Assembly (NCBI GenBank): GCA_002245135.1
Contig: NGBS01000001.1
Coordinates: forward strand, 310,001 to 374,000
DNA length: 64,000 bases
Source of the DNA: Proteromonas lacertae
Lineage: Eukaryota
Direction of reading: 5' to 3'
Made by a program: the position numbers and the translations under genes. Positions 3,936 through 63,800 of this stretch are shown one piece after another (the stretch's first letter is position 1; each line of letters opens with the position of its first letter). The notes beneath the pieces were generated by a model that worked only from the letters and a program-made list of their open reading frames with translations, was not told the DNA's origin and made no database searches.

Positions 3936-5573
3936 CTATTCTTTTGATGTATTAGTGAAATATTTCTTCTCAATATTCTCTGGTAATGCAATTACTTCGA
4001 AAGAACGAGAAAGTAACAACAAATTAAATATATTAAGGATAATGAATTAATATAACAACACATAAAAAGGATATGGAATAGGGACTTTATGATATATTGA
4101 TAAATCTAACCAATCTTCCATTAGTTCTTCAAGACTTTCTTTGCTTAATCCCTTAGCATGACATTCCTCTTTCTTCGCAAGCATCAGCTAATTCATCATA
4201 ACTCATTGATTTAACTCCTTCAATCATTATTAACTTATCATCCTTTCTAATCTTCTTTATTGTTTTTCTTATTCTGACTCTTTTCAATTCGTTAAAAGCC
4301 GAGAGTAGTTTTGTTTAGATATTTGCATAATATATTTAATTCAACTTTGTTCATATTATCCAATGATAAATCTTCTTTTAACATTTCACTTATACTAATA
4401 ATTTGTTTTCTATTAACTATTACACCATCTTCTTTACATTTCTTTATAATTTCTAAAAAATCATTAATATGTTTTTTCTTTTCATCTGTATCAATATTTA
4501 ATGAATTATTCAATATATTTTCCATTCTCTCTTGCAAAATATGAGCATTTTTAACTCTTTGCTATTCAAATAGATTATATATTTATAAATACTTCTATAA
4601 ATCTTTTCTCTTGATCATTTTTAATGTTTGGTGTTTGAAAGCTTGATGGTAACATATTCGGAAAATACTAATTACATTTACAATAAAATTTAGTATATAC
4701 AATTAAATAAAACGGAAATATTAATTCAGTACCAGGTACTGTACAAAATATACTAAATGGAATCATTTTTAATGCATCACCTTTAGCTCTTTTCAATTTC
4801 CTTAATTCGTGGTGAGTTAATTCATATCCTTGTAATCTTCGTATAGAAAGTCTATATCCTTGCTTCATATCTCCACCAAATACCTTACAACTCTTCCAAA
4901 ATTCTTTAAACCATTCAATTACATTTTCTTTTGTAGGATGAAAATAAATACATAATTCTTTCCATCCCTATTTAATGTGATATAGAGTTAGTATTTAAAA
5001 TACTTTTGTTGGAGATACAACTATATGTAATATAATTACTCCTATTTCTCTACAATAAACACTAGTTTTCTCCATTAATGATTTTTTAGGTTTGTTTTGT
5101 TCTATTAATTGCTTATTAATTTCTTTAGGTATAACGCCGCTGGATTTAATGTTAATTTTTGTGTGATTCTTTTGCTGAGAAACGATATTATCACCAACAT
5201 TTTGTATTTGATTAATAATCTACAATAAATAGCAGCTATACTCTCTTATTCTGCTCAGGAGTAAAATTTTGAGTTTGCGACTAAAGTATAATAAATTATA
5301 CATACAATTAATCTATATTGCGTATTCATAAATGTAGAACGATTGTTATATCCTTGACACACAAAGTCATTTCTGATTGTTGAATATTTGCTTGAATGAT
5401 ATGTCTAAAAAAATTAAAATACGCTGCATATACTCCATATAATCTAATCCCAGCTATTTTGAAAGGAACTAAGAGAATATTAGTTTAGATATACTATTTT
5501 TACATTTATGTGTTAAATATTTGTTGTAAATTAATGTTTCATTCTTTATACCTAAACGAAATGTTGAAAGCAT
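3936..5573 (-). CDS. LETM1-like mitochondrial inner-membrane protein, paralog 1
   Basis: KMIPFSIFCTVPGTELIFP..FPNMLPSSF, ACEERG, WLDLS..VPIPLLLLSRSF; needs a U12-type intron (4024-4074) and two +1 corrections (~4294, ~4155). Confidence 0.8.
4024..4074 (-). other. U12-type intron, AT-AA termini, 51 nt
   Basis: Minus strand ATATCCTTTTT...TCCTTAAT-ATATTTAA; contains in-frame TAA; removal restores the LETM1 motif VPIPLLLLSRSF. Confidence 0.8.
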
Positions 5574-5679
5574 GATTAAATTAAAAAAATGTAAATGAAA
5601 GTAAAAAAGGATGTAATTTACAAAAACACAAATGTAAAAAACAAAAAAAGCAATAATATTAAGTTAATTCCTACATTAC

Positions 5680-6953
5680 TTATATGAATGACATATACAT
5701 AAATAAAATTCTTCATAAAGTTAAGAAATTATTATAGTCTATTCTGAATCAAAAAAAAAGATATGAAATTGGGATAGAGTGATTTATAGATAAATCAACC
5801 CAACGTTTAATCATATTTCTAACTTCTTCTCTACTCAATCCTTCATATTTTATTCCTCTCGCTTCACAAACATCTTCTAAATCAATATCAGTTAAACAAT
5901 CAATTCCATCTATAACAATTAATCTATCTTCATTTTTAATTGAATTTATTTTTCTTAATAGATTTAATCTCAATATATATTGAGGGTAATATTTAAACAC
6001 ATTTAAATATTTACATAAAGATGTTAATTGTCCATAACTCATATTTTGAAGTAATAATTTATCAAACATTTTCACATTTTCACTCATTTTAATCAATTGA
6101 TTTTTCTCCAATATTTGCTTATTTGTTATTAATTCTTTCACTTCTTTACTTCTCTATATTAATATCAATCAATTTATTATATTCATTTTGTAATAATGGA
6201 CTTATTCTTTTCCTAACAACATAAGTTCTATAATGTTTATTATGTCTTTGTTCAACAGTCTCAAAACTGGAAGGTAACATATTAGGAAATGAAACTAAAC
6301 AAATTGGTAATAAAATACATGTTCCTGGAATAAGACATAATAACATAAAAGGTATAAATTTTATTATATCACTTCTTGTCCTTGATAATTTAATAGATTC
6401 ATGACGATTCAATTCAAATCCTTCTATTTTCTTAATAAATAAGCGATGAGCATATTTTAGATCTTTACCAAGGATTTTACAGCCTTTCCACATATCTATA
6501 CACCAATCTATAGCTGGCTTCAATAAAACTAACATATCTTCCCAACTCTATTAACAATAAAACAAATAGAGATAATACTTTTGATGGTGATGTTGGTATA
6601 TTCTTAACAATATCATATATTTCGGTTGTGTATTGCTGATATTATAGTATTTAAATTGAAACCATTAGTATTTTTTGATATAATTATTGGCAATTTATCT
6701 AATTGAATATTATCAGCTTTTATATTTTGATATTCCATTGTGGACATAAATCTTAAAGTATTGGAATAATGTAAATGAGAAAAATCTATAATGATATTTC
6801 GAATCTTATACTGAGTTGGGTTCCAATAGCTTCTAAACTACATTGTTTCATGAATATATGCTGGAATGGCTTTTGGAATGATCTTATCATTTGATTGTTG
6901 ATTTTAGAAGGATTTAAATTTCTGTGGTGCGAAATGTTTTCATTAACCAACAT
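5680..6953 (-). CDS. LETM1-like protein, paralog 2 (tandem)
   Basis: KFIPFMLLCLIPG..FPNMLPSSFET, CEARGI, WVDLS; U12-type intron 5711-5764; +1 breaks at ~6148 and ~6615-6640. Confidence 0.8.
5711..5764 (-). other. U12-type intron, AT-AG termini, 54 nt
   Basis: Minus strand ATATCTTTTTT...TTTCTTAAC-TTTATGAAG; same phase-2 position as the 4024-4074 intron in paralog 1. Confidence 0.8.
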
Positions 6954-7062
6954 TTTTAAAAAGAGAATATTTTCTGTTTATTTATTCATGTGATAGAATA
7001 TTATAAATATAACCAGTAGAATAAACAGATAATATAAGAAATAAATATTAAAATATAATAAT

Positions 7063-11131: not shown

Positions 11132-11195
11132 TTAGTAAATTCAAATTAAAAAAGTTGAAACGAACAAGTTTGACAAACTCTAAAGAAACGTTTCA

Positions 11196-12156
11196 ATGTC
11201 TATAGACGTATCAAATGATCCATTAATTCAAGCTTTACGAGAGCAGCTACAAGCAAGGAAGACTATACCAAGATCAGCTCCATCATCGAAGAAATACCCA
11301 AAGATTGGTTCAGCTACTTTTACAAGTATCTAATGTAGTTATTAATGTTAGAATTTTCTATATATGAGAATAATATTGATGATTATCTACCTTCAGACTG
11401 GTCTTGTACACCACAATCTCAATATATTTCACCTTATTCCATAAAAGCAATAAATGCTTCTAGATCGTATATTTTTGTTCTATATAGAATAGAACTTGTA
11501 GGAATACACCTGTTAAAAAACGAGAAATAGAAAGACAGCCTTTGATTTACACTCATGCTGAAGCTAACAACCATTGGAAAGGAGAATTACCACATTGTGT
11601 AAGTAAACAAGCAGCAAAATGCATTGATTTTGTTCCAGATATCCAAGTTATAGCAAATGAAGCAGATTTTGAAGCTGCAAAAGAATTGTGTAAGAAAGAG
11701 TTAGATGATGCTGCATATCAAAGAACATTTGTTGTAACACCAGTAGATTGGAAAAGTATATTGTTTATAAGGTAATCTAATAATTAGCACTTGTTCCTTC
11801 CAAGAATTTAAAAAGTGGTCCAAGGCAAAGACTTCAAGGTAATAAGAAAATAGACTCACATCATTTACAGCCAATTGTGGACATGAACTTCCCTGAGAAA
11901 GCAGAAACAACAAATCAAGTATTTGAAGAGAGTAATTCAGAAGATCCTTTAAGACATTCAATGAGAAATGGATATTATAAAAACGGTTATGGTAGAATAA
12001 AATGTAGAGAAACTAGAATATGGGAAATATCATTTTTTATAAATAAATTTGGAATGAAATTATTATATCCTTAATAGAATGTAAGAGAATTTGCCAGTAG
12101 CAAGAGCATTTAGATATAGTAGAGGTAGAAGAAAGGGTGAAGAGGATTTACCATGA
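11196..12156 (+). CDS. Uncharacterised protein (spliced)
   Basis: ATG 11196; in-frame exons across four GT-AG introns; 3' end depends on the putative U12 intron at 12027. Confidence 0.55.
12027..12085 (+). other. Probable U12-type intron (AT-AA ending 12084 or AT-AG ending 12085)
   Basis: ATATCATTTTTT...TCCTTAAT-AGAATGTAA(G); the AA end opens a 23-codon exon ENLPVARAFRYSRGRRKGEEDLP*. Confidence 0.5.
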
Positions 12157-12298
12157 TTACTATAATAATTCAAGTAATTAGATAATTTGTATTGTAAGTT
12201 TAAATATATATTCATTATATCAAATATTTTTTATTGTAAAATTAAGGTAAACAACAAAATTAATATATATTCAAAAAAATAATTATTTATTAAATTAT

Positions 12299-13554: not shown

Positions 13555-13675
13555 ATCACTTCAAAAGAAAAGAAAACTGATTATAACGTTTTTAGGTAAT
13601 TTACTTTTGTTGTGTAATTGACTGAAATCAAGCTCAAAAAGCTTGAGACATTGTTTGTAAAGGTGTTAGACACAA

Positions 13676-16729: not shown

Positions 16730-16799
16730 TATGATAATAATATGTTTCTCGTAATGTTTAATCTCGTAGTTGTGTTTTATTAATGGTTAAAAATGGAGA

Positions 16800-17129: not shown

Positions 17130-20100
17130 ATGAATTTTATAGATAATGTATTATCTTCAATATTTCCACCTGATACTCAAGTATTTTTAATAGTCTTACT
17201 TTTATAGATAAATGAGAAAGTTGAAAAAAGTAGTACAGAAATAGATGTAATTATTCAGAATCCAGAGGTTTATAGATTATTAAAAATATTGAATATTGAT
17301 GGAATAAAGGGGAAAACAATTTTAAAATTCCTAGAAACTTACTCATCGTTGTTTCAATATCATTTATCGTTCCTCTGTCAATATAAAGTGTTTCAGATGA
17401 ATAATTATCATCAATATATGATAATATCAAGAAATTATTATGATAAAGATTTAGAAGAGGTGATTCACACTAAATCTTTTTTAAGTAGTGATGTATGTAG
17501 AGTTATAATGTTCAATATGTAATAAGTTGATGATATTAAGTGAATATAATATAATAGATGACAAATTTAAAGAGTTCTAATGTAGTATATGAAGATGATT
17601 ATAGTATAAAGTTATGTGATTTAAATCTTAATACATTAAGAAAAGAAGAAGTGAGTTTATATGACATATGCTTCAAAAGCCCAGAAGAGTTGAGTGGACT
17701 TGAGTGTAATGAAAGAAGTGTGATTTGGTCAATTGGTTGTATTTTATATGAAATGATTTGTAAGAAATTACCATTCAATGAAGATGATAGTATATACAAA
17801 ACTATGAATAATATTTTGGGGTGTAAATACTGTTTAGATATTGATGATTCAATGAAAGATGTGATAAATAGAATGCTAAAAGTGAAGAATGAAGATAGAA
17901 TGAGTTTAAAAGAGTTGAGAAAAGAGATGATAAAAATGAGTGAAGTATTAAAAGATCAAGGTAATTATTTAATGATATCTAATGAAAGGAAAGAAATAAT
18001 TTTGACTAATGATTATACAAATTTTGCAATTCCAATACAAACACCACCTGCATTTTATTACAATATCGATTTGTATGAAAGTATAATAATTGTATAATGA
18101 ATAATTCTAATAGATATTCAATCAAAATTAATAAAATTATACAACAGTAAATATGATGAGAGAATCCTGTCAATATTATTGGGTTTGTACCAAAAAGATA
18201 AAAAAATAAAAAATAAATTGAAGTTTAAATTCCTTCACAAATGCAAAGAAGGAAGAGAATGTTATTTAGATGAAATGGTGTTTAATATATTTACTGATTG
18301 CGATTATATATACACATTGGATATTGCTTCATCATGTATGTGTGCATGTGAAGAAGGAATAAAATACTTTTTTGGAATAATGAAGTTACTAAATATAACA
18401 ACAATTCCATCTAGTATAGTTTCCATTTGTTATTTATATAGATAGTTTAGATCATGTTATTTTTCCATTGCAACTTCAGCCATTATTCGCATCATCTATC
18501 TCTCAATTATCTAATCTGCAACAATTAGATTTGTCAGATAAAAATTTAACTTTTCATTTCATTGAATCATTTATTAAATCTATTCCATTAATGAAATTAG
18601 AATATGTAAATTTTCAAAGTATAAATATACTTCTGTATATATTATTATTAAATAGATAATCGAATTGGTTCAAAAGGTTTCAAATTGTTACTTCCACATT
18701 TAGATTTATTAATCAACAAAGAAAATGAATTGAACCTTGAAAGAATGAACTTAAATGATGAATCAATTATATTATTATCAGAACAATTATATAAATATCC
18801 AACTCTTAAGAGAATAGATATTTGGGGAAACTGTAATATTCATTCAAAAGGATTAAAAACCATATTTTCCAAATTTCCTATTTCAAAATTGTCATTTGAA
18901 CTTAATAAAAATACAGCATTATTGATTGATAAAGACATTCCAGAATTAGTGAAATACATTAAAGACGAAAATGATTATGAAGATAGTAATAATAGTGATA
19001 TTGTAAATAACCTGAAGAAATTAGAAATTGATGATATTTTTTTCAAATCATTGATTTCATTAAGATATAATGAGTTTAAAGAAATAGGCAGATTAGATAT
19101 CAGTGGTATAATTTGATATTTGTTTATAATTTAGATAATAAATTAACATATAGTAGTATAGAAATACTGATAAACAATTTATCTTCATTTTCAAATCTTA
19201 ATTACATTCGATTAAATGGAAATGAAATAGGAGATGAAGGAATGCAAATATTATCTCCACATGTTAGTTTATTAAAAGACGTATGTGATGTTATGGATTG
19301 TTCTAGTATATATATTGTTATGTTACATTTAATAGAAATGGGATTATCTTCATTAGGATTAAAGTACTTATTAGATGGCTTAAATAGTATTAATGGAGAG
19401 ATTCGCTTGCTTAATGTAAGTGATAATCATATTGATTCAAATGGAATTGCATATTTGATGAAATATATAAAAAAGAAGAAAAATATAGAGACTTTCTTCA
19501 TTCACTGTATGTTTTATATTTATTAAGTATTTTGTATAAATGTTAATAGATAATCAAATATGTAATACTGGATTTAAACTGATAGAAACAAAATTGAAAA
19601 TGTTGATTAATAGAAATATTTACGAAATAAATTTAAATAATACATCAATAGATGATGAAAGTGTAGTATTATTATCAAACAGGATTAAATCAATTGGAAA
19701 ATGTGAAAGAATTATTATAAAAGGGAATAATATTAGAATGAATGGATTAAAATCAATATGTTCAAAATCACTAGAGAAATGCACATATCCATTTATGCAG
19801 TTAAAATGTTCTTCATGGTCAAATGAAGAATTGGAGTATTACCTTGATTATTGCATTAAGAAAGAAAGAAGAGATTATTGCGGATATGATTTTTCTAGTA
19901 TAGAATCGGATAATCTTATGAAATAGATATGAATATCAGTGATTCTCACATTTCATTAATAAAACATATTGATTATAGAGAACTTGACTTATCCAATAAC
20001 AAGATTAGTTTTAAAGGATTTAAAGAATTGATGGATTCTTTACCAAACAATAACTATATTACTATTAAAGTTAATAACAATGAAATAGGGGATGATGGAA

Positions 20101-20508
20101 TAGAGATTATATGTAAATGTTTAGAAAAATTTGTTGAAAAAGATTGGAAGAATTATCCATCATTAAATCTTTTAAGTATTTTATGATAATTTTTTTATTT
20201 GAATAGATATAGGAATGAGTGAAAAAGGGCTGAAAATATTAATAGAAACATTAAAGGGTTATGAACCATTAAAAGTATTGAATCTTTCAGGAAATGAATT
20301 AGATGAAGGAGAATTAAGAATGATGATAGATAGTAAGGTAATATTTGATAGTTTACAAGAATTATCGATTACATTAAAAGAGAAAATTGATTTAAAAGAA
20401 TTAAAGACTTTTTTAGAGACTTTTTCATCAGTTGGAAGAATCAAATTGAATGGAATAATAGAAGAAGAAAAGAAAGCAATAACTAAAATATGCAATAATG
20501 TAGAATAG
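17130..20508 (+). CDS. Pseudokinase + LRR protein, copy B (full length; two frame breaks near 17507 and 17557)
   Basis: Kinase-like NLKSSNV, KLCDL, FKSPEE, IWSIGCILYEM followed by RI-like LRRs; about nine GT-AG introns. Confidence 0.75.
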
Positions 20509-22132: not shown

Positions 22133-23716
22133 CTATTTTTTATTAAATATTGAATTGAATATTATTCTCATAAGATTTAATGGAACTACAATATCATATT
22201 CTTCACTCACAATTTCACATGGCAATGCATAATAATTATGACCTAACAATTGAGCATAAATGTAATTCGTAAAATGTGCAGGTTTCTTATAAAACGTATC
22301 TTCATTCGACATAAATTCAATCACATGAGTTCCTTGTGTAGCAAATCCCATATAATACAATGAAGGTCCATGAGGTCCAATAATCATAAAAACATTCGAC
22401 CAAAACAACAACATTTCACTTAGAGATTCAAAGTATATTTTATCATATAAATATAATGTGTAATTTTGTTTATTCATTGTTTTATTCAGGAAATGAATAA
22501 ATATTTCTTCATTTAAAACATGTCTTCCACCTTTAAAATTACCTACATTTCTTGACATATACACAATTATATATTTATCTCTACTTTTATATTGACTATT
22601 TAAATAAGGCAATTTTAGTAGTGTTTGCATTCTTTGATATAAATATGGATGGAGAGGAGGTGTTTTGCAAGATAATATCAGTGTTTCTGCTCTTATATTA
22701 ATCTGTGTAGCAAAAATCAGCCTTTCAGTGGATATTCCAATTCTGTTATATAACTCCATTATAATTGGCGTATTTGCATCTTTCTGATTTATATCAATAT
22801 AAAAATATATAGAAGGATCTGCAATATATGACTCTAACTGAACTAACTTTGGTATTATTCTGTCTAGGAAATGATGAAATGTTCTTCCTTCAGGTACAAC
22901 TATATATACCACTTTACCTTTAATATATAATGCAGTTGGATGTTCTGGTTCACCTTCTTTTGGTAATAAATGTTTTAAATGATTCAAATTACCTTCTCTT
23001 CCACATATAAAATCATCTGCTACTTCACCATCTTCAATCACATCTATTTTCCCATTTGTGTATAATTTGGTGTTATATATCTGAAGATTAGTGTAGTTAT
23101 CACAGTCTATTACCAAACATGGGTTGGTATGATAATGTGTCATGTATAATTGTGGATATAAACATACATTATCTGGACATAATGCTTTATTCTTCACTCT
23201 TGTCTTGAAAAATGACGAACTAATCATACTAATTGGTGTATTTAGTGGTCCTGCCAGTATGAACGGTGGATAATAGAATCTAAGTCTGAATAAATACTTT
23301 GGATCTTCTGGCAAACCATCTAAAATAATGGATGGATATATTTTTTGAACAACTGAATAATACTCAGTTCTGGTTGGTCTGAACATCAATTTGATTAGTT
23401 CATGTGAATCACGTGGAGTTGGTGGTGGTGTTCCAGTGTCTATCTCTAGGTGATGTTCGGGAATTAAATCTCTAACATGGTTTCCTTTAAAACTCTTCTT
23501 TTCTTCGATATTATTGTCATGTTTTATTTCTAGATTATATGCTGTTGGTTTTCTGTATATGCCGTTCTTTAGAATTTGTTCTATAGCGACTGATTTTGGC
23601 AGCAGTGGTATATAAGACATCCTTGCGATCCTTTCATTTAAAAAATTAATAATCATCATTTCCATAATGCATACAATAGCCAATATAGTTAAAAAATTTG
23701 TTATGTTCAAAATCAT
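22133..23716 (-). CDS. Glycosyltransferase family 61 (DUF563)-like type II membrane protein
   Basis: Intronless 527-aa ORF; N-terminal TM; FHHFLD, YMSR..RHVLNE, IIGPHGPSL, VIEF. Confidence 0.75.
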   Translation of the reverse strand: MILNITNFLTILAIVCIMEMMIINFLNERIARMSYIPLLPKSVAIEQILKNGIYRKPTAYNLEIKHDNNIEEKKSFKGNHVRDLIPEHHLEIDTGTPPPTPRDSHELIKLMFRPTRTEYYSVVQKIYPSIILDGLPEDPKYLFRLRFYYPPFILAGPLNTPISMISSSFFKTRVKNKALCPDNVCLYPQLYMTHYHTNPCLVIDCDNYTNLQIYNTKLYTNGKIDVIEDGEVADDFICGREGNLNHLKHLLPKEGEPEHPTALYIKGKVVYIVVPEGRTFHHFLDRIIPKLVQLESYIADPSIYFYIDINQKDANTPIIMELYNRIGISTERLIFATQINIRAETLILSCKTPPLHPYLYQRMQTLLKLPYLNSQYKSRDKYIIVYMSRNVGNFKGGRHVLNEEIFIHFLNKTMNKQNYTLYLYDKIYFESLSEMLLFWSNVFMIIGPHGPSLYYMGFATQGTHVIEFMSNEDTFYKKPAHFTNYIYAQLLGHNYYALPCEIVSEEYDIVVPLNLMRIIFNSIFNKK

Positions 23717-24034
23717 GAAAATAACAACTGCAAAAATATATGTTTGTATAAATATCCTTTAATATACTTTTTAAGGTAAAATGGTTAACTATAATTCACA
23801 AAATCGAAGATAATAATCAACATAAACTTGACTATTATCAAGCTCTTGTGTTTTTAAAATCTCATCCTAGGTGTACATCCTTCATTGTGTTTACATATAA
23901 TATAAAAAATCGTCCATGAAGTTTTTATTCACCCATTTTATGTATATAGAATGTATATATTCTGAATAGCGTAACAATTATTTTACACTAGATAGACAAC
24001 ATCGCAAATAGTGAATTTATAAATCATTGGCTTA

Positions 24035-25513
24035 TTATTTACTACGAACTAAAAGACTAATTAAGATTTCCATTCGTTCTGTATTAACATCGATATTCAA
24101 ATTTGATCCTTCTGCCTTACAAGGTAAAGAATAATAAGACAATCCGAGCAATGATGCAGTTTTTAATATCCTAAAATTATCTTCATTACCAGAAAAGCTA
24201 TCAGATGCTGGAAATAATTCTACAACAGCGACATTTCTTCTCGCAAACATCATATTATAGAAAGCATCACCAGATGGACCAACCATAATCAATACTTTAT
24301 CCCACATTGATATAACTCTGTCAGCATTATTATATTTAATATTATCATAAATGATCAATCTCATAGAATTTGATTTAGCTATTCTTCGAAGTGTTGATAT
24401 AACATCTCTTTCATTATTTACTTGTCTACCATCATTATTGTCACCTCTATTTCTAGATAAATACATAATAATATTCTGATTTTCACTTTCTACATCATTA
24501 TCAGTAGTAAATGGAATATTCATCATATATTGAGCTCTTTGTAAAGATAAAGGATTATATTTTGGACTATTACATGGTAAGATCAATATATCAGCTGTTA
24601 TTCGAATATTTTCATTATTTGGTATAGCTCTAATTATTCTTCGTGATGTAATACCTACTCGTCTCAACAGTTGTTTGATGATATAATTCTTGGGAGCTAA
24701 ATCAATATAAAATTTAATATCTTTATCTGATAAAAAAGATTCAACTTGAACTATCTTTGGTAATAAATTCAATACAAATCCTTCTAGTGAATTACTATTT
24801 TCTACTAATAAATAAACAACAGTTCCATCATATCTTTTAGATTTCATTGATGAAGATTTATCTCTTAAGTAATTCTTAGCATTGTCATTATTGTCATTGT
24901 TATTATTACTGCCACAGATGAAATTTGGAGGTAATAATCCATTCTTTATTACATCTACTTTACCTTTAGTGTATTTATCTTCATAATATACTTGAAAATA
25001 AGTTTCATCACTGCAATTCATTTTGTTATTGCTACATGGTGATACACTATAATGAGTGAAATAACTGTGAGGATTTCTACAAATATGTTCATTACAATTG
25101 ACTTTATTACTTAGACTTCCTTCATAACCACTACTGCGAAGGATATATGGAGGTAAATTAAAAGGAGGAGGGATAGAAAAAGGATTATAAATGAAAGTAA
25201 GTTGTTCAGTATAACTATCTGGTAGTGAATCTGTTATTTTACTATACGACAAAGGTAAATAAGGCTTTATTCTAGGGATGATGACAGGTATTTGATCATT
25301 ATAAAGTAGCTTTTGATTTGATGAGCGTATATTGTTGGATTGTTCACTTTTATCGTATTTCTGCTGAGAAATATCCATCAATTTCCACGAATTGTGTACT
25401 ATCTTGTCTGTTGCTATATTTGAGGATAGAAGTTTGAGTGTAGATATGAACTTGATCTGTACAAAGGCAAAGAAAAATAGGAAAGCCACAGCAAACACTG
25501 CTTTCACCTTCAT
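24035..25513 (-). CDS. GT61-like paralog (tandem)
   Basis: Intronless 492-aa ORF colinear with its neighbour (YTKGKVDVI, YLSRNRG..RQVNNE, VGPSGDAFYN, VVELFP). Confidence 0.7.
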   Translation of the reverse strand: MKVKAVFAVAFLFFFAFVQIKFISTLKLLSSNIATDKIVHNSWKLMDISQQKYDKSEQSNNIRSSNQKLLYNDQIPVIIPRIKPYLPLSYSKITDSLPDSYTEQLTFIYNPFSIPPPFNLPPYILRSSGYEGSLSNKVNCNEHICRNPHSYFTHYSVSPCSNNKMNCSDETYFQVYYEDKYTKGKVDVIKNGLLPPNFICGSNNNNDNNDNAKNYLRDKSSSMKSKRYDGTVVYLLVENSNSLEGFVLNLLPKIVQVESFLSDKDIKFYIDLAPKNYIIKQLLRRVGITSRRIIRAIPNNENIRITADILILPCNSPKYNPLSLQRAQYMMNIPFTTDNDVESENQNIIMYLSRNRGDNNDGRQVNNERDVISTLRRIAKSNSMRLIIYDNIKYNNADRVISMWDKVLIMVGPSGDAFYNMMFARRNVAVVELFPASDSFSGNEDNFRILKTASLLGLSYYSLPCKAEGSNLNIDVNTERMEILISLLVRSK

Positions 25514-49725: not shown

Positions 49726-51972
49726 TTAACTTGGATATTGCGACTGTTGATATATAGCCGGCTGTCCTTGTGCTGAAGAGTATCTAGTAGTAATAGGTAT
49801 AGATTTAACAAATGGATACTGTGGCGTTGGAGCTGGAGAATTATGAACTTTTTGTTGTTGTTGTGCATATGCTGGTTGGCCTGTTTGCTGAATACTAATA
49901 TGATTATTACTTAGATTTCGATTAGCCATTTCAATTGTAATATGCGGTGTAGATAGATGTTGTGATGCTTGTTTCTGTCGGAAAGATGACTGTTGTTGTA
50001 AATATGCTGGAGTTCCACCACCACTTGGTGAAGGTGCAACAGGTGGAACACCACCATTACTATTTTGATGTCCACTCTTTCTTTTACCTCTGAATTTCTT
50101 TCCTTTGCCTTTTTCTCCACCATAAGTCTATTAAAAAGTTATAATAATTCATTATTAATTTTTACTTGTCTCATAAAACCAGGTATTCCAGAATCTGAAT
50201 GTAATACAGCTATTTACAATATATTAACAATTATCTATATACAATTAGTCCAATCATCACCATCATCTTCATCATCTTGTTTTTTACAACAGAATAATGT
50301 CTTCCAGAATTTCTTCTTTTGAGATCTTTCTTTCAATGTCTAATAATTAATATATACAAATATTATATACATCAATATCTAATTCATCACATTCGGTTAC
50401 AATATCAATGAATTGAGCATATGTCAAACAAGTAGCATCAGCATTACCAGTAGCATGCTTTAATATGTTCTTTACCAAATTATCAATTTCTTTTGGAGTA
50501 AATGATTCTTCTCCTTCTTCTCGAATACCTTGACCTTCTCCTTTCTTACCAAATGCTCTTTCCAATAATTCTCGAATTTCTTGTTTAGATAAGACATGAT
50601 CTCCATTTTTATCAATAACTTTGTATATCTGAGCATTCAATGCAGCTTGTAATGTAAATTGAGCAAGTTCTTGTTTAAGGTTGGTATCTTGATAACCATA
50701 ACGCTTATACAATGTAGAATCTGCTCCTAGTAAATACCAGGCTATAAAGGTGGTTATTGTATAAGCAAAGTTTAACAATACAAGACCATTAGTTATAGCT
50801 GATATTAAATAGGAGTAACTAAACTCAGATACCATTCCAGTTGGAACAAAACTAAAAGAAATACCTCGAGTCTCTTTTTGAATAAAGTCTGAGGTTAAAT
50901 ACTTCTTTGAAACTACTTTTGGATTAGATAAATCAAATACTTCATTACCTAAGGATGTAGCAACAGTATCAACTTTCACTTTTACTTCACATTGAAAATC
51001 ATCTACACTAATTACACTACTTTGCCAATTATCCAAATCAATACCCAGATCATTAGAATTATCATATTCTAATGTCACTTGAAGAGTTATTCCCGTCACT
51101 CGATAGGATATGTTATTCATATTTGGATTAGGATCATCTAAAGATTTTACTCCAGCTAATTCTAACCATCTTGTTAAAGGTAAACTAATTTCTTGACCAG
51201 AAGCAAATATTTCAGCTTGATTATTGTTTTGATCTTTTATAATTGTCACCATCTTTGTTCCATCTCGACCATCTGATGAAGCTGTCATTTTTGTAGTCTG
51301 GTAAATATGAATTAAAGATTGTAATGAATAGTAATTCATTTAATAAAAAGATATAATTTTATGACTAAATGTATAATTTAGATTTTCTACACCTACCATT
51401 AAGAAATTATCTAATTGTTTCATTCTACAATGATTATTAGTTACATTTTCACATCCATTTAATTCACATATACCACAATCTACAGTTTCATAGGTAGTTT
51501 GTTTCATATAAGACACAACTGCTGATTCTTTAGAATTACTACTTGTAACTCTTCCCATATCAGTAGCTACACATGTAGGTTGAAACATCTTACCGTCATC
51601 TGGATCTTCATATTGATGATTGCAATAAGCGGGATTGTATTTATCTCCTATAAATTCTTCCTGTAACTGATTATACATTCCGGGGTTAATATGAGTAAAT
51701 ACTGACCCTGTAGGAGACTATAATACGATAAAATCGTAAAAATCATACTTCTTTCGATAAGTACGTTTTGTTGGCAACAATATCATATATCGTATAAAAT
51801 AACATTCCGATTTGTAATAGTCGGAAAATGATACCCTAGGTAATATAAAGCATGAATGAAGATACTAATCTTAAATCATGTATCTTTAGGTACTTTTGAG
51901 TTGAGTACACAAACATTGAGCTAACTGTAGACCACACACCCTACCAGAATAATAAAAAAACAACCATACCAT
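49726..51972 (-). CDS. P2X receptor-like ATP-gated channel with C-terminal EF-hand
   Basis: N-terminal YSTQK (YxTxK), TM1, GVENL, RVTGITL, RGISFSF..G, TM2, DKNGDHVLSKQE. Confidence 0.75.
51301..51354 (-). other. U12-type intron, AT-AC, 54 nt
   Basis: Minus strand ATATCTTTTT...TCTTTAAT-TCATATTTAC; removes an in-frame TAA, giving FSHKI|QTTK. Confidence 0.85.
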
Positions 51973-52085
51973 TCTAGTCAAAAAATGTTTTAGATTGCGT
52001 AAATGTTTTTGTGTAAATTACATGTTTCTATGATTTTTCTATTTATCCGTTTCATTGTTTCCCTATTTATCATAAATCTTTTGAT

Positions 52086-53404: not shown

Positions 53405-53523
53405 AATAATAGTATTAACAGATTTATATATTTCTATATTGGGGTAAATGAGAAAAACAAAAAAATAAGAATAAATGATCCAAAACGTATATATTTTTAA
53501 TTAGAAATTGAAATTATTCATTA

Positions 53524-54197
53524 ATGAGTTCTAACGGGTATGTATTGCTTTATTTTGCAAAATATTAACCTACATTAATCAACAAATTTTATTCTCTATC
53601 TTATAGCAAAAATTCAGTTGAAAACGCTCAAGACTTAGATGAAATCTTGAAAGCTCAAAAACAAGTCTTCGCATTACCCACTTCAATGAGTATATTTCTT
53701 ATGTAATAGTGCACATAGATTTTAGTCTCTTTTTATCATCAGCTTTGGTAGTTTGTGCATCACTCTACTTATATATCAGTAAGATGTTCCATATGACAAT
53801 TGCTGATGTATTTATAGTGTTTTATATATAATTTAGGATGGACTCATTCTCGGAGGAGTTGGTTTAACAACATTAATCTTGTTGTTTGTTGCAGGTCAAA
53901 GAAAAACAACTGTAAGCTATCTTAAAAGAAGAAATCAATTCGGTCCAGTTCAAAACAGTGTTATTGATGCTGCAGTAAGCAAAGAAACCACAATGAGATC
54001 TATTGGTGTAAATAATGCTATATACTTCGCAGCATTCACACTTCTTGCTACATACATCATCCCAAGAGTTCCATTACCAATTAATGAAGAAATTAGTTGT
54101 GGTATTTCAAGTATTTATTCTGTTATTTATTTTTCTTTTTTAAATAGTGATACTCCCAGCTGCTTTTTTGGTTTTCGAAGCTTATCAATCTAAGTAA
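53524..54197 (+). CDS. Small multi-pass membrane protein, possibly TRAP-gamma (SSR3)-like
   Basis: Four short introns; ETTMRSIGVNNAIYF resembles SSR3 EATTFSIFYNNTLF. Confidence 0.45.
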
Positions 54198-54298
54198 ACA
54201 TTTTAAGAAACATTTTCATGAAAATTGTTTTGATTGTTTTTTATAATTTCTAAAACAACACAAAATAAATAATATTACATTAAACAAAAATATATAAC

Positions 54299-55493
54299 TC
54301 ACTTAACATGCAATGTGCTATACGCCCAATCCACTAACATTCTTGTATCAATGAATCTCATATTCTGATCAACTGAACCAAGAGTAATTATGGATAAAGT
54401 CAGTCTATTTCTCTCTACTATAGACCACAAATTACCATGTATTCCTGGTCCATTAGGATTTGGCACCCATCCCGTTTTACCAGCTAAAAATCCATCAGTT
54501 CCAATCAATATATGAGTATTATGCCAATTAATAGATCTACATCGTGATTTACCTTGAATTACACATGTATAACTAAAATAATTAATAAATATAAACAATA
54601 TATACTTTTTAGTACTAATAATTGTATTAAACAAAGGGAATAATTGACAATGCAATCCCAATCTCATCAAATCACTAGCTGTTGATAGATTATTCTCACT
54701 TCTCATTCCATGTGGATTTACATAGTGTGTATTTCTCATATTTAATCTTTTAGCATGTTTATTCATCTTCTTAATAAATGCATTATATCCTTCTAATTCT
54801 GATACTTCATATTCATCATTGTTATTATCTTTATATCTTTTTTCTATTAACATTTTTTGTCCAACATGTTCAGCTAAGGCTATTGCTGCGTCATTTCCTG
54901 ATGGTAACATCATTGCATATAATAAATCAAATACAGATAATACATCTTCGTATTGCAAATGTGCATGTGTACCATTTTTACAATCAGCAGATCTTTTGGA
55001 GACTTTTACATAATCATTTGACATTTCATCTTCGTCTGAATTATAAGCTCTAATTACTGTGTATAATGTCATCATTTTAGTCAATGAGGCTGGTTGAACT
55101 TCCTTCTTTGAATCATATTCAAATAGTATATCACCTGAATCGTTTTCTGCTATAATCCAATGATGACAACTTACTGGTGGAGGTACATACATAGAATATG
55201 AACCGCTTGGTATGGTATGTGATAAGGGTATCTAAAGAATAACAACAATATATGTACATTATCTCCGTCATAATTAATCAATATAATTGGACCTTTTACT
55301 GTATATAATTCAAATAAACTCATGATTCTTTTTGTTAAATCGACAGAAGTTCGAATTTCACTCCTAATGGAATAGAATGACAAAAATACCTTAGCATGGA
55401 CAAATATCGGACCTTACCTTGGTATTTAATCGCTAAATTTAATGTTTTCTTATCATAAAGCATATATGTTCCTCCATAAACTAGCATAGACAT
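54299..55493 (-). CDS. Peptidase S11 (D-alanyl-D-alanine carboxypeptidase-like) with small N-terminal domain
   Basis: PASLTKMMT (SxxK), PSGNDAA (SxN), NPHGM, GKTG (KTG); three GT-AG introns, including a stop-free 33-nt one at 54573-54605. Confidence 0.88.
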
Positions 55494-55625
55494 TCTAAAA
55501 TATTAATTTCAAAAAATAAACCTGTTTATAACGCATATATTTTTGTTATTGTTTTTATAACAGAACAACAAATACACAAAGTTTTATATATATAATAAAT
55601 AAAATATATAAACATACTAAAATCA

Positions 55626-56346
55626 CTAATTTTCTTGTTTTACTTCACCTATTATTTGAGGAACTCTATCAATACTAGGTTGATTTTCATCTCTAACAAC
55701 TAAATTAGTAATTACTTCATCATGTAAACTTTCCATCGCTTGGGAAGATTTACGTTTTTGTTGTTTCTGTGGTTCGGGTTTTAATCCTTTTGACATTACA
55801 GAATTTCTAAAAGCTCTTTTCTTCACAGATAATGGATCTAATTCATCAGGATCATTATTTTTATGGAAAGAATCTTTCCTAGTCACTACTTTAAGGAATT
55901 GAGCATCTTGCATTTGTGCTGTTGACATTCTAGGTTCATGATGTTGTTGAAGACTCAGTTTTGAATTTGGATTTAATTGTGAACTAGCTCTAACAGCTCT
56001 AAAACCACTCGATCCACCGTAAGGACCTAGTTTATACCCACTACCTCCATTATTACCAACACAATGTTCACCATGCGGTGTTAGTGCATATGGTCCTAAT
56101 TCATTAGAATCGTGTCTTAAATTGTTGATTTGAGGTATAAGCATAGGAGATGCTACTTTATCTTTTGTTTCAGAATCTCTTTGTATATCCTTCTTCTCCT
56201 CATTCTTCTTCTCCTTCTCCTTCTTTTCTTCCTTGCCATCTTGTTTTGCATCATCAGGATCTGGTGCAACCTGATACTTTGAAGCACGACCTACAATAAT
56301 ATAAAATATGATGTGTACTTTTATGCCTAAAACAACTGAAACACAT
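55626..56346 (-). CDS. Uncharacterised low-complexity protein
   Basis: MCFSCFRHK first exon plus one intron into ORF 55626-56144. Confidence 0.5.
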
Positions 56347-56496
56347 TTATATTATATATATTAACTATAAATAAGAGATTTTAAATGATATATTTTTTAA
56401 AAACGAAAGTCTGACAAAACAGAATCAAACTATTTGTTTTATTTTATTCAATAATAATATATGAGGTATGTAATTAGATCTAATATTCCTGTTTAT

Positions 56497-58520
56497 TTAA
56501 TATTCAGGAAGTTGTCCAACTTGTTTACTTACGATCTCTTCCCTTTGAAGCTGTCTTCTAAATCTTTGTAATTGTCTTCTTAGTGCCATGTTCATGTTTA
56601 TCTTCTTGTCTAAAATTTGTTCTAATCTTTCTGCATATGCATCAATATCATAATCTACTACATCATCACCTTGAATTTTGGCTAAAATCTGTCCTTCTTC
56701 AGTCAACAACTCTGCACTTTCTTGAATACTTCTCATATGACTCTGTAACAATTTTTCTTCTTCAGCGATTAACAATTGAACAGCAGTATGTACATTCATG
56801 GCTTCTGTTGCTTCCTTACTATTACGTTGTAATGAATGACACAATATCTCAATATCTTTAATATCTTCTTCTTCATTACTATCAGGTGAATCATCATCAT
56901 CTTTAGATTCAATATGTGGTTCTTTACTTGGATATAAATGTGGAATTGGATCTAATTTCTCTTCTCTAGCATAATTAGAAGGTGGTGGGATTCTACTACC
57001 ATTATTTCTACCACCAGCACCTGCACCACCACTTGGTCTATCATCATAACCACCACCACCACCTCGATTGTTGTTATTATTATAATTATTATTATCTAAA
57101 TGATCTTCAACATGACCATCTTCTACTAATGGCATATCCATAGCTTCACTAACATCTTTCTGTTTAATTCTATCAGCATATCTCAATGTATTCAATGTAT
57201 GATCAGCAGAACTAGCAGTAGGTGAAACAGTACAAATCATTACAGCTCTTGCTTTACCTTCAAATGTATCTCTCAATACTTGGGTTAATTTACTAGCACG
57301 ATAAGGGATATGAACATTAGAACCACCACTATCTAACGCTCTAATACATTCTTTCAGAGCTAATAAACTCTTATTAATTTCAGCACCTTCTATTCTCTTC
57401 TGTCGATTGTGATTCTTTGTTTCTGAAGCTCTTTCACTACCAGCTAAATCAATTAATGCCAACTTACCATAACTTCTATCATAAGCATCTTTAATTGTAA
57501 CGAAACAGATTGCATGCGATCTACTACTCTGATCGTGTACTTCTGTAGCGGATGTTGTTCTGATTCTAGTAGCATGATCCATTAAACTCAATAAATCCTC
57601 AACTGTATTAGCTTCTACTTCTAATAATCCTGGTATTTGTATTTTATGTTTGCCATCTTCCATTAAACTGACTCTCTTTCTTTTGTTTAATAAATCTAAT
57701 AATCTTCCACCGTAAATTTCAAAATAACTGATTGTTACTTTCTTATCACTATTTTAATATATATTATATTATACCTAAATTCTGGACTTTTCATATAACT
57801 GAACAAATCTTTAGCAGCCATTTGTTGTATTGTTGACATTGTATAGGTTTTACCCGAACCTGTTTGACCATAGGCAAAGCATGTTGCACATCCGTTGGTA
57901 GTCATAACGAAATCTACTAGTGGTTTGGCTGTATATTTATATACAACATCTGTTTCTACACTATCACTGAAAGCATGATCAAAAGCGAATTGATGATTTA
58001 CTAAATATTTGGTTATACCATCTACTTTTAATTTACATTCATGTACTATGACTTCTGGATTGTAAACTGAAACTGCATCGTAATCTTCGTGAGATATTTC
58101 TTTTGGATTGATCGGACGTTTACGAATCTATGCATTGAGATAGAATATAATTGTTATATACACATATAGTGATTTTATAAGCTCCTGGTTTCTGATGCTG
58201 TCTTTCTGCACTTCCTCTTTTTACGCGATAATCATTGATCATTCTACAAAAATCTAAATCTCCAACCCTCCCTTTAGCCTTTTGTTCCTCCACTTCTGCA
58301 ATTTCTAACAACATAAACATACTTTATATACTATTTTTCTTTGCTTCTTCTTGATTTAATCGTCTCTGCTCACGCTGTTGTCTTAGACGCTCTACGGCCT
58401 CTACTGTCGGATCAACTTTCTAGATTACCTCTAAAAGCAATTATATACCTTTTTGTTATTGTTTGGTGGAGGCCCACTTGGTTTAGGTGGGTTTGGTTTA
58501 TTTGCTGAAGCGAGTGGCAT
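56497..58520 (-). CDS. Kinesin-13 family microtubule depolymerase
   Basis: KLKVDGITKY, CFAYGQTGSGKTYTM, SSRSHA, LIDLAGSER, EGAEINKSLLALKECIRAL, HTLNTLRYADR. Confidence 0.92.
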
Positions 58521-58583
58521 TTTATAAATACCAACAGATTTATTTAAATATTTGAATTAGGCTTGATTCTCAAGTGTTTCAAA

Positions 58584-60747
58584 ATGAATTTGAACAAAAA
58601 AATTATCACTTTTCTCGACGAAAAGCCAGAGAATACCAAACAAAATGTGAAACATGAAAATGTATGGTCATTTTAATTCTCATTATTAATAGTTAGATGT
58701 AATTAGAAAAGAATTACCTGTTTATCAGTATAGAACTGAAATTGTAACATCATTAAAACATGGAAGAGTACTTATTATCGTTGGTGAAACTGGTAGTGGA
58801 AAGACAACACAAATTCCTCAATATTTATATGAATCTAAATGCAACGGGTATTATTTCAATTATTTAGTTTATTAGAAATCATCAAATAGGAATTACACAA
58901 CCAAGAAGAGTTGCAGCAATAACAGTAGCAAAAAGAGTGTGTGATGAAATGAAATGCAAACTAGGAAGTACTGTCGGTTATTCAGTACGTTTTGATGATA
59001 CATGTACAAACAAAACAAAACTCAAGTTTGTAACTGATGGTATGCTAATGAGAGAAGCTATGTTAGATCCATTATTATCAAAATACTCAATCATTATAAT
59101 CGATGAAGCACATGAAAGAACACTTCAAACAGATATACTATTAGGAATATTGAAACAATTATTAAAGAAAAGATTAGAATTAAAAGTAATAATAATGTCT
59201 GCAACTTTACAAAGTGAATTATTTCGTTCATTTTTTGAAGATTTTAATCCGAAAATCTTAAACATCAAAGGAAGAACATTTCCAGTGGATGTGTATTATA
59301 CTTATCAACCTGAACCTGATTATTTAGAAGCTACACTCTCTACTATTTACCAATTACATACAGATTGTCCACCTGGTGATATCTTAGTGTTTTTAACTGG
59401 TCAAGAAGAGATTCAATCATTATATAATATATTAGAAAAAAGACAAACATTAAAATCAAAATGTGGTTTAGAAATGATGCCTTTGATGATATTTGCTGCT
59501 TTACCACAAGATCAACAGTTATTAATATTTAATCCACCTCCTGAAGGTAAAAGGAAGATTATTCTATCAACCAATATATCAGAAAGCTCAATTACTATTA
59601 ATGGAATTAGATATGTGATTGATCCTGGATTTGTTAAAGTATATATATAAATAAAATACTTATTGTTTATATTATCAATAGATTAGAGGCTTTCATAGTC
59701 AAACAGGTGTTGATTGTTTGTTAGTATTACCTGTCTCAAAAGCTCAAGCTTGGCAACGAGCTGGAAGAGCTGGAAGAGAAGCACCAGGACAATGTTATAG
59801 ATTATTCACAGAAGAATCATTTTTAGAATTGCGAGATAATCCATTACCTGAAATAAAGAGATGTAATATGTGTACTGTTATATTACAATTAAAAACAATG
59901 AAAATTTCAAACATATTTGAATTTCCATTTATTGAACCACCATCTAAAGACACTTTGACTAAATCATTTGAGATATTATATTTATTATTAGCATTAGATT
60001 CAAAAGGAGAAATCACTGAATTGGGTAAAAGAATCGCATATTTCCCATTAGATCCAATTTATAGTAACATGTTAATAAAATCTGTAGATTTTCACTGTTT
60101 AGAAGATATTTTGGATTTAATATCATTATTATCAGTTGATACTATTTTTTATACACCCAAAGGTAAAGAGCAACAAGTAATGAATGCGAGAAAACAGTTT
60201 TATGCTGCAGAAGGTGATCATATTACTTTACTAAATGTTTATAAGAATTACAAAGCTGTAAAAGGTGATAAAGAATGGTGTAAAAATCATTTTATTAATA
60301 TCAGAGCGATGTATACAGCTGATAAAATCAGGCAACAACTTGTAGAATATTGTGAAAGTCAGAAATATACTTTTGAAACATGTAATGGGAATATTGAAAT
60401 AATATTAAAATGTTTAACATCAGCTGGTTATTTGAAGTTAGCTCAAAAAGTTGATTCTACAGCTGGTAAGAATGTAATTGGATCAAGATGTCAATATCGT
60501 ACATTACATAGACATCAATTAGCATCTATTCATCCCACTAGTACTTTATTTGGAGTTAATCCACAACCAGATTATGTAATTTACAATATATCTTTTTTTC
60601 TACAATTCTATTTATTTATATGCTTTAATCGTTGATTTTTTTTACGAATTAGTATTTACTTCAAAGAATTATCTTCGTTGTGTTTCTTCAATCTCTAAAG
60701 AGTGGATTGTTGATTTAACTCCACCAATTTTCCAAAATTTGAAATAG
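58584..60747 (+). CDS. DHX33: DEAH-box RNA helicase, DHX33-like
   Basis: GETGSGKTTQ, TQPRRVAA, DEAHER, MSAT, SKAQAWQRAGRAGRE; last exon reached through an AT-AC intron. Confidence 0.8.
60588..60645 (+). other. U12-type intron, AT-AC, 58 nt
   Basis: ATATCTTTTTTT...GCTTTAAT..TTTTAC; removal restores the conserved YVIYN|ELVFTSKNYLRCVS. Confidence 0.92.
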
Positions 60748-60871
60748 AATATCTCTATTTTTGTTGTTATTTATATATTTTTATTGATTTTGTTATGAAT
60801 GTAGATTTTTGTTAATTTTAAAAAATAGAGTAGTTACACTTTCATCAAAATTTTTATTTTTTTTTGAAGTT

Positions 60872-63800
60872 ATGAGAATTTGGCTTTATGCGGTTTCCGT
60901 TGTTATATTACTACTTGGTATGTGTATTGCAGACATGAAAGACAATGTCGTTTTAAAAGAACAACTCTGTCCATCAAAATCAATGGTATAATATGAAAGT
61001 TATAGCATAACATAGGGTGCAGAGAATACATTATTTTCTGCAATGAACGAAGGTATAGCGAATGATCAGTGCCTTAATGATCTTGAGAATAATATTTTCT
61101 ATCAAAGCATAGTATTTGATAAAAATCTACCTGGATTTATGGATATTATAAGTAATGTCATAGATAATAAAAGTGCTTTTCCGATGAAACAAGCAATGGT
61201 ATAAAGATTACTTCTATTGTCATAGAGTTTTGTGTCAGTAGCTATTGCTATGATAATAATTTTAGTTCTAACTTTGATTATTATTCCAATAATATGGTGT
61301 TGTAGTTGTTGCTGTTTAAAAGGAGGTGAAAATGAATCATCTCAAACTGATTTTAAATCCAATTCACAAGTGAATAGTACAATTGAATTACCAACTGTTG
61401 CTACACAAGATGACAGTAATTATGTAGGTGATGGAAATGAGAGTAGAACTCCAGCATTTACAAAGAGAGGAAAAGGTAAAAATAATAACAAAAAAAGTGG
61501 TGAAAGTATTGATGATGATTGTTGTGCTTGGTGTTGCTGTTGTTGTGGAAGGATATGTGGTATTATATGTGGATTTATGGGATTAATATTATCTATTATT
61601 TCACTCTTTTTTGCCATATTTGCTTGTGCAAATGTATATATTATGAATATTTATCAATTAGGGAGCTTTTAGTGGATTTCCAGATAAAATTGGTGAAGTA
61701 ACTGAAGTATTTGATAGTGCTTCAGATTGGGCAAGAAATACCCTTCAAATAGTGAAAGGTCCAATTGTAGATGATCTTATATTAAAAGATGGAATAAAGA
61801 CAATTGATAAGTTTCAAAATATATGTATAATATTCTTTAAAGTTTTATTTTATATAGTTTTTGATTCACTTAATACTGATTTATTAGTAGATGATTTGAA
61901 GAGTATATTTATTGCTATTGCTATTGTTATATTTATAGCTGTTAATGTAACACTTCATAAACTACCAACAGGTGAAGAATTACGTTATAATGTTGATGGA
62001 ATAAATAAAGCAATGGATATATTTCCCAAGAAAGAAGAGAATGATAAAAACTTTAATGATTTTAGTAATAGTATAAATACACTAACAGGTTCATTGGACA
62101 GTACAATTACAGTGTTTCAAAATACAATAGATAAATCACAGTTAATCAATATAGATGGTTTTAGTAATGATGATGCAAATCAGCTTGATGAATCAGTTAC
62201 TTCAATTTGGTATAGTGATTATGATGGCATTGATAAATTACTTACAACTGCAACAAGTGCTGATTGGAAAACAGTTAAAGATTCAACATCAGTATATAAT
62301 CATCATTTTATTTGTCTATATAGTGTGAAAGTACTGAATGTCAATCATCAATTGAAATAGTAATTAATGATTTAGATGAATTTCGAAAAATGGAAATTAA
62401 AAATATCACTTTAATAACAGATCAATTAATACCCAATATTAATAATTATATTACATCACTTGATGGATTTACTACAGGTGCAGAATCAATCTTTACAAAA
62501 TTGCATAATTCGATTAATAATTTGAAATTATCATCATTTACTGAAAGTGTATAAATAATTAATTATAATTTATTAATAGCTTCACGCAGTGAATACTACA
62601 GTAATAGAATTTGATGTTAATCCATTAACTAATACGGTAGATGTAATAAAGAATGCAACTAATACACTTCCGCCATTAGTGCCATTTGCCAATTTACTGA
62701 ATAATACTTTAGAAGTTGTAGAAGTGGTTAATCTATTAAATAGACAAGTGGATAATATTATGAATATGTCTAAGAATTTGTTAAATGTTTCAACCTTAAT
62801 TGATGCTCTAAATTCTATTGTATTTTTCACTTCTTTTATTATATTGTAAATAGAAAGATGAGACAAACCAAATCACTCAATTAACAGGTTCAATTAAAGA
62901 ATCAAGAGATCAAGTATTGAAGATGGATGAATTTATTCAAAAAGCATCAGATCTCTCTGAAATGAACAAAGCAATTGATACAATTAATAATCAAATAAAT
63001 GAATATAAGAATAATGTTAAAATAATGGATATGATTAAGAATATGGATAATCTTACAACATATTTCAATAATTATATGTTTGAAATTCAAACTGTAAGCG
63101 TTTCCTTTAAAGAGAAACTTCAAACTATTAAAACGTATTATGATGCTAATTCAGGAAATATAAATTTGAATTTTATATCTCAGAAATATGATTCAATTAA
63201 GAATGAAACAGGTGATGCATTATATAATAATTTTAAGAGTTTTAAAGATAAAAATTGTGATAGTGATTGTAAAACAAGAATTGATACATATATTGATCAA
63301 AGTAGCCTAAGTAATGTTGATAATTATAAACAATTAGTTACTCTTATAAAAGATATTAAAAGTGATGAAAAAGTCAAAACACTTGTTTATGATTCTACAA
63401 ACCCTTTTCCATATTCAATTTATAGACAATTAGCTGAAAATGTAAAAACTGAATTACCTAATTATAGTGGTGAATTAAATGAACTTATATCTTTTTTTCT
63501 CACTTTAATACATTTATAATTGTTGTTATTTCTTAATTAATCTTTTACAAGAGTATAAAACAATCAATGAATGATAATGTTCCAAATTTAGATGATATTA
63601 AAACTCCATTAAATGAAGCATCAGATACAATAACTGATTTAAAACCAACCATAGATAATGTAGCTAAAGAATTAGATAATTATGATTTATATACTGGATA
63701 TGTATATTATTGTTTATTAATTAATAGATTAATGATTTGTCTCCAATATATCCAGAAGGATTTTTAGACACTGATAAGTATGATAAGAATAAAAGTATTG

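Follow-up and report, generated by a model that had tools for sequence, protein, structure and literature searches.

Does the window analysed here, i.e. the whole 64-kb stretch of DNA, carry introns of the minor (U12-type) spliceosome, and if so, are these introns more numerous than is usual? The question is raised by six segments of 51-62 nucleotides (nt), three on the minus and three on the plus strand, which start with ATATC and interrupt the reading frames of genes in this window. The initial annotation described them as a dense and remodelled set of miniature U12-type introns, and their number, positions and lengths were confirmed. Minor introns are considered an ancient, rare class with hardly any gains, Physarum being the one large exception. 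Our analysis suggests, with a probability of about 80%, that the six segments are introns of the U12 spliceosome, of the short and exclusively AT-starting type found in Blastocystis, residing in a protist that is itself likely to be a flagellated relative of Blastocystis, e.g. Proteromonas lacertae. The putative U12-type introns are as follows:

4024..4074, minus strand: AT-AA, 51 nt, phase 2, in LETM1 copy a; box TCCTTAAT, putative branch A at -10
5711..5764, minus strand: AT-AG, 54 nt, phase 2, in LETM1 copy b; box TTCTTAAC, putative branch A at -11
12027..12084, plus strand: AT-AA, 58 nt, phase 0; box TCCTTAAT, branch A at -11
51301..51354, minus strand: AT-AC, 54 nt, phase 0, in the gene of an EF-hand membrane protein; box TCTTTAAT, A at -12
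60588..60645, plus strand: AT-AC, 58 nt, phase 0, in a DHX33/Dhr2-like DEAH helicase gene
63487..63548, plus strand: AT-AC, 62 nt, phase 0; box TTCTTAAT, A at -13

The donors read ATATCTTTT at four sites and ATATCCTTT and ATATCATTT at one site each. The ATATC start and the TTT at +7 to +9 are present in 6/6, and position +6 is occupied by T (4), C (1) or A (1). The donor form ATATC(C/T/A)TTT given in the initial annotation thus holds for 6/6 segments, whereas the textbook RTATCCTTT is matched by 1/6 only; the extended 5' splice site RTATCCTT is recognizable in this set with a relaxed +6. The YYTTAAY box lies 8, 9, 9, 10, 16 and 11 nt from the 3' end, within the range of 8-16 nt described before, and resembles the TCCTTRAC branch box (CTTAAY in 4/6, CTTTAAT in 2/6); the minor-intron consensus motifs were taken as given in bioRxiv 2020.10.12.336362. 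The putative branch A is placed 10 to 13 nt from the 3' end, except in the helicase intron, where the candidate box is either GCTTTAAT (A at -18) or TCGTTGAT (A at -11). The 3' ends are mixed: AC in three introns, AG in one, AA in one, and AA or AG at the 12027 site. The latter intron may end at 12084 or at 12087 (AT-AG, 61 nt), of which 12084 is favoured because it puts the branch A at -11, like at the other sites; an end at 12085, also considered earlier, had to be dropped, as it would leave a four-codon tail. Both LETM1 introns occupy one phase-2 position in tandem paralogs, so the number of independent positions is five. Phase 0 was found at 4/5 of these (p 0.01 against the usual 22%, p 0.18 against the 49% of Blastocystis ST1), and the bias away from phase 0, which is typical of U12-type introns but not required, is not seen.

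Genes in the window were predicted with a purpose-written, self-training model that allows GT/GC-AG introns and, optionally, a U12 state; all intron counts given for the window are predictions of this model. It predicted 148 major (GT/GC-AG) introns, in line with the earlier estimate of about 150, with a median length of 31 nt (131/148 within 23-40 nt, 6/148 of at least 50 nt), a GTAT start in 142/148 and a TAG end in 142/148. The AT-starting segments stand apart from this class: C at +5 occurs in 6/6 of them versus 5/148 major introns (Fisher p 3e-8), and CTTAAY occurs in 0/148 major introns, or in 1/148 when the CTTTAAY variant is allowed. No GT-type minor introns were found among the 148 predicted major introns. 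Across the window, the major introns are unusually uniform, and no branch or pyrimidine signal is visible in them. Five introns of the window start with GTATC; they are 26-35 nt long and lack CTTAAY:

447-481, plus strand: short GT-AG intron
905-933, plus strand: short GT-AG intron with a minor-like start, GTATCTTTT, and without a branch box
11326-11351, plus strand: short GT-AG intron
43609-43636, minus strand: short GT-AG intron
51836-51865, minus strand: short GT-AG intron

It is possible that these five represent minor-to-major conversions, or they may have arisen by chance.

The genes at the six sites, in which the removal of an intron should restore a conserved protein, are:

3936..5573, minus strand: LETM1/Mdm38-like gene, copy a (Pfam LETM1_RBD; frameshifts near 4295 and 4155)
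5680..6890, minus strand: LETM1/Mdm38-like gene, copy b (Pfam LETM1_RBD, E 1e-26; 3skq, E 1.6e-12; frameshift near 6150)
11196-12156, plus strand: gene not assigned to a family; the AT intron at 12027 is its last
49726-51972, minus strand: membrane protein with EF-hands (Pfam: EF-hand_7 only, below cut-off)
58584-60747, plus strand: DHX33/Dhr2-like DEAH helicase gene, host of intron 60588..60645
60872 to the window end, plus strand: weakly prominin-like membrane/coiled-coil gene (Prominin, E 1e-3, below cut-off)

Such restoration was observed against homologues at two sites, and against the paralog and Mdm38 at two sites. The spliced junction of the helicase is gapless in comparison with 22/23 other homologues, the remaining one not reaching the junction. 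Its relatives P0001, P0121 and P0122 (93% identity) contain a read-through insert of 17 codons at the intron site, and P0123 stops inside an insert at this site. The first and last residues of the relatives' insert are compatible with a segment that starts with ATATC and ends with TAC, but its length and interior differ; the insert therefore appears to behave as an evolving intron, with conserved ends and a diverged inside. Four metagenome helicase loci have no intron at this site; the metagenome scan yielded 25 distant loci, none from this lineage.

With 51354-51301 removed, the membrane protein gives a gapless junction against P0365 (54%) and P0373, and is in register with 15 more distant homologues; P0373, apparently a genomic sequence, reads through the site without an insert. 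This protein is tentatively labelled P2X-like, and Pfam gives no such match. The LETM1 paralogs stay in register across the AT-AA intron of 51 nt and the AT-AG intron of 54 nt, and the copy b exon upstream of the intron matches yeast Mdm38 (3skq) right up to the donor; copy a, when read across its intron, had no PDB match. An Atlas search with the two genes lacking an assigned family, one of them 11196-12156, gave no usable match. The suggestion that some of the introns lie in lineage-specific genes fits two hosts without a clear family, but not LETM1 and the DEAH helicase, which are ancient.

The donor combined with a loose box was found 7 times, compared with a simulated mean of 2.0, and at least 6 occurrences appeared in 3.5% of 200 simulations, which is marginal; with a strict box there were 5 occurrences versus a mean of 0.43 and a maximum of 3 (200 simulations). 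As the patterns had been derived from the six sites themselves, the significance of these simulations is overstated. The decoy test of the gene model is a better control. Supplied with the true donor and box, the model placed 5 introns with a gain of 45 nats, whereas 44 runs with 11 permuted donors yielded 0 introns in 40 runs and 1 in 4, of which 3 overlap true sites. The gain per site is 5-12 nats (e.g. +8.9 for 4024..4074, +11.6 for 12027 and +10.7 for 63487..63548) and 0 for 5764-5711. This last intron was chosen during the initial round of training and also with the prior set to 20%, but not afterwards at 2%; it gains nothing because its last exon comprises ten codons, and its recognition is based on the LETM1 paralog. 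It had been claimed that GT-AG splicing cannot repair the breaks. This is strictly true of the two LETM1 introns; each of the remaining four sites offers GT/GC-AG pairs that would restore the frame, none of which starts with GTAT. Annotation restricted to GT-AG introns splits or shortens the genes that carry AT introns.

Further candidates were rejected. That at 47335 is situated inside an open CrcB/Fluc membrane helix and was taken at a 20% prior only, 4322-4283 would remove conserved LETM1 residues in a place where a one-base frameshift accounts for the break, and 40617-40571 has the relaxed motif only and overlaps a GT-AG intron.

The AT start, the mixed ends and a length greater than that of major introns are already known traits of Blastocystis. 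In Blastocystis ST1, 346 U12 introns were reported among 35,412, together with four minor small nuclear RNAs (snRNAs) and seven minor proteins (Gentekaki 2017, PMC5608401). The ST1 intron table (PMC5608401, supplement file 32) has 339 ATATC-starting rows, 336 of them ATATCC; in 129 of these 339 rows, used for end and length figures, the ends are AC 80, AG 41, AA 5 and AT 3, the median length is 39 nt and the minimum is 37. Larue and Roy (2023, PMC10639083) counted 253 minor introns in ST1, 77% of them AT-AC and 49% in phase 0, and suggested recent gain. The introns of the window share with those of ST1 the ATATC start, mixed AC/AG/AA ends, a length exceeding that of the tiny (~30-nt) major introns, a box near the 3' end, richness in phase 0, and a share above that of most eukaryotes. 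The "remodelled" character ascribed to the set (all AT-starting, short, with a relaxed 3' end) is therefore real, but it is not novel, being on record for ST1. On the other hand, the introns are longer here (51-62 nt versus a median of 39 nt, 51 nt being reached in 7/129 ST1 rows), the box is exclusively TTAAY whereas ST1 often has CCTTCAC, the genome is AT-rich with a fixed GTAT major donor, and the local share is 3-4% as compared with ~1%. In the same 129 rows (PMC5608401), the ST1 boxes are often CCTTCAC or CCTTGAC, not CCTTAAC, there is a sharp floor at 37 nt, and several genes carry two or three minor introns.

As to the host, the window has a GC content of 27.4% and is gene-dense, with spacers mostly of 60-250 nt. 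P. lacertae has 27.0% GC and 23,189 predicted genes in 52.2 Mb (PMC10690189), while the tortoise Blastocystis genomes differ from the window in having 21-23% GC and an intergenic median of 645-719 nt (PMC12129017). Annotation and RNA data are public for the tortoise isolates; P. lacertae had neither public annotation nor RNA-seq, in agreement with the lack of named close proteins for the window. Pfam, run on 105 of the 148 listed open reading frames of the window, identified two tandem LETM1 genes, calpain, RRP6, SAC1, PACRG, H2A, CCT, PDH E1, kinesin and the DEAH helicase. One of these genes bears directly on the host:

35461-36448, plus strand: axonemal PACRG gene (Pfam ParcG, E 3e-69; PDB, E 9e-72)

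An axonemal PACRG implies a flagellum, and Blastocystis has lost nearly all flagellar genes (PMC12129017), which argues against Blastocystis itself as the host. A ciliate is possible but not favoured, since the best PDB match of PACRG is apparently not the Tetrahymena entry and ciliates lack minor snRNAs (PMC13685798). No 18S gene is present in the window. Taken with the Blastocystis-like intron type, these clues make P. lacertae the best guess for the host, somewhat more likely than not. The Blastocystis gene-end motif TGTTTGTT occurs 9 times in the window and is not among its top enriched 8-mers. Close relatives (85-99%) of the helicase, a D-Ala-D-Ala carboxypeptidase and CCT4 are Logan records among the matches listed.

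Several observations weigh against U12-type introns in a relative of Blastocystis. An Rfam search of the 64-kb window returned 0 matches and thus no minor snRNA, although a window of this size is by itself uninformative for the genome. For positions 54001-64000, no RNA run was listed, which speaks neither for nor against splicing. The canonical C at +6 is missing in 5/6 donors; +6 is mostly T and is C in 1/6 here, unlike in ST1, where it is C in 336/339 (supplement of PMC5608401). Both points, as well as the fact that 142/148 major donors read GTAT, one base from ATAT, would suit real introns removed by the major spliceosome, as U2-type AT-AC or hybrid introns. We consider this very unlikely in view of four linked differences between the classes (C at +5, branch box, length and non-AG ends), the TAG end of 142/148 major introns, and the coexistence in Blastocystis of the same pattern with a full minor spliceosome (PMC5608401).

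Moreover, the donor motif alone is found at chance level (21 observed versus 20.1 simulated), and the support for the sites 12027 and 63487 comes from the gene model. About seven single-base frameshifts are present on the minus strand, at approx. 4295, 4155, 6150, 10190, 26775, 41350 and 42200, three of them in the LETM1 pair; once the donor is relaxed, a spurious AT intron is predicted at one such frameshift (4322-4283). Frame repair alone consequently proves little. The affected genes (both LETM1 copies, RRP6, an unassigned large gene and a kinase/leucine-rich-repeat gene) are otherwise intact, and the frameshifts probably stem from erroneous indels in a long-read assembly that was not polished; alternatively, the genes may be pseudogenes. 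It might thus be argued that some of the sites reflect not introns but indels in the assembly, decaying pseudogenes or simply the ends of genes close to an AT-rich motif, especially as a stop within the segment could terminate the genes at 12027 and 5764. This seems scarcely probable, since indel errors do not create inserts of 51-62 nt that share a donor and a box, homologues and relatives confirm two sites and paralogs a third position, and decoy donors fail to reproduce the result.

Two further points concern the lineage. In a CCT4 tree (117 rows, quick method, the long rows P0246, P0262, P0265 and P0296 excluded), the window and two relatives form a long unplaced branch apart from the named stramenopiles. 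Among the 120 matches listed in each of three homologue lists, none is a named Blastocystis protein. Overall, the U12-type identity is well supported by sequence signals, controls and homology, and the six segments appear to be genuine minor introns of the type known from Blastocystis, in a genome not surveyed before.

In minor splicing, U11 and then U6atac pair with the donor, and U12 pairs with the branch box. Here, U11 followed by U6atac would pair with the ATATCYTTT donor, and U12 with the YYTTAAY box. Given that position +6 of the donor has drifted (to T in four introns and A in one), U11/U6atac should show either a compensating change or wobble pairing. Selection of the 3' end would depend mostly on how far it lies from the branch A (10-13 nt in this set), so that AC, AG and AA ends could all be tolerated. 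Since GTAT, the major donor, and the minor donor differ at only two positions, a GT-type minor intron might be captured by the major spliceosome and then shrink; AT-starting minor introns alone would persist because the GTAT donor would take those of the GT type. The extra length of the AT introns may reflect the minimum span required by the U11/U12 complex.

The window was also compared with other minor-intron systems. The RTATCYTT-like donor and the CCTTAAC-like box are shared with animal and plant U12-type introns, in which AT-AA is a known non-canonical end and non-canonical ends make up ~4% (PMC10639083). Unlike the introns of the window, those of animals and plants account for ~0.3-0.5% of introns, are mostly GT-AG and are biased away from phase 0 (PMC10639083). 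For Physarum polycephalum, 20,899 minor introns have been counted; their branch point reads TTTGA, and transposons have been proposed as their source (bioRxiv 10.1101/2020.10.12.336362). The RTATCYTTT donors and non-canonical ends of this species, and its elevated density if the window is typical, are similar to what is seen here; its introns, however, are mostly GT-starting and biased away from phase 0 (same source). The boxes of the window read TTAAY rather than TTTGA, and no inverted repeat was seen by eye at the intron ends.

With regard to density, the AT introns constitute 6/154 = 3.9% of predicted introns (95% confidence interval (CI) 1.4-8.3%), or 5/153 = 3.3% (CI 1.1-7.5%) when independent sites are counted. 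The binomial p is 0.004 and 0.018, respectively, against the 0.98% of ST1, and 1e-4 and 1e-3 against 0.5%. Minor introns of ST1 are themselves clustered (over-dispersed): among blocks of 154 introns, 2/74 hold six minor introns and 4/74 hold five or more, and of sliding blocks 1.8% hold six and 4.6% five or more (the 11,525 rows covered, out of 36,254, contain 120 sites, and rows were taken to be in genome order). The initial annotation spoke of an expansion to about 4%. The share of 3-4% stands for the window, but five independent sites in one window do not establish it for the genome. The data favour a density above that of ST1 by a modest factor and exceed the usual 0.3-0.5%, and a genome-wide minor share of 1% or more is likely; expansion is unproven.

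It is possible, though on the doubtful side, that the window is typical, with a real expansion of minor introns to ~2.5-4% of all introns, i.e. thousands of the AT type, many of them recently gained; this account departs from the one preferred here in density only. Apart from the excess over ST1, it is favoured by the phase-0 bias at 4/5 independent sites, by the intron-free homologues (P0373 and the four metagenome helicase loci), and by the absence of DHX, LETM and P2RX genes from the human/mouse minor-intron gene tables of PMC6717393 (the control DDX54 is present), a comparison made at gene level. These features can be read as signs of recent gain. Nevertheless, there are just five independent events in one window, which was flagged partly for its density, ST1 at ~1% still has equally dense blocks, and the inverted-repeat signature expected from the Physarum example is absent. 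An even more far-reaching scenario, which we regard as unlikely, is that minor introns were gained en masse a second time, independently of Physarum, in a flagellated relative of Blastocystis: ~3-4%, numbering thousands, all AT-starting and phase-0 rich, with the ATATCTTTT donor expected to be mirrored in U11/U6atac. The 1% of Blastocystis ST1 would then be an eroded or a parallel form of an Opalinata-wide AT-only system.

Blastocystis ST1 has been viewed as a smaller unexplained case of minor-intron abundance, and Larue and Roy called for further genomes from this clade (PMC10639083). The window likely derives from such a genome, which is absent from the text and the supplement file of PMC10639083 that were searched. 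Our literature search revealed no paper on U12 introns of Proteromonas, and the P. lacertae genome paper (Zahonova et al. 2023) may already describe them. A genome-wide picture would show whether the AT-only system is older than Blastocystis, whether its introns were acquired in large numbers at once, and whether the donor evolved in step with the snRNAs.

The remaining features of the window are:

4-1860 (plus), 17130-20508 (plus) and 40266-42371 (minus strand): related kinase/leucine-rich-repeat genes (similarity by eye)
22133-25513, minus strand: two tandem intronless glycosyltransferase-61 genes
37613-38494, minus strand: intronless FkbM methyltransferase gene
54299-55493, minus strand: D-Ala-D-Ala carboxypeptidase (Peptidase_S11) gene with three predicted introns

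The three kinase/leucine-rich-repeat genes form a dispersed, expanded family. For the D-Ala-D-Ala carboxypeptidase, the closest named eukaryotic matches among those listed are from Stentor (32-33%), followed by bacteria. The glycosyltransferase-61 and FkbM genes, intronless amid an intron-rich region, are possibly recent transfers or retrocopies.

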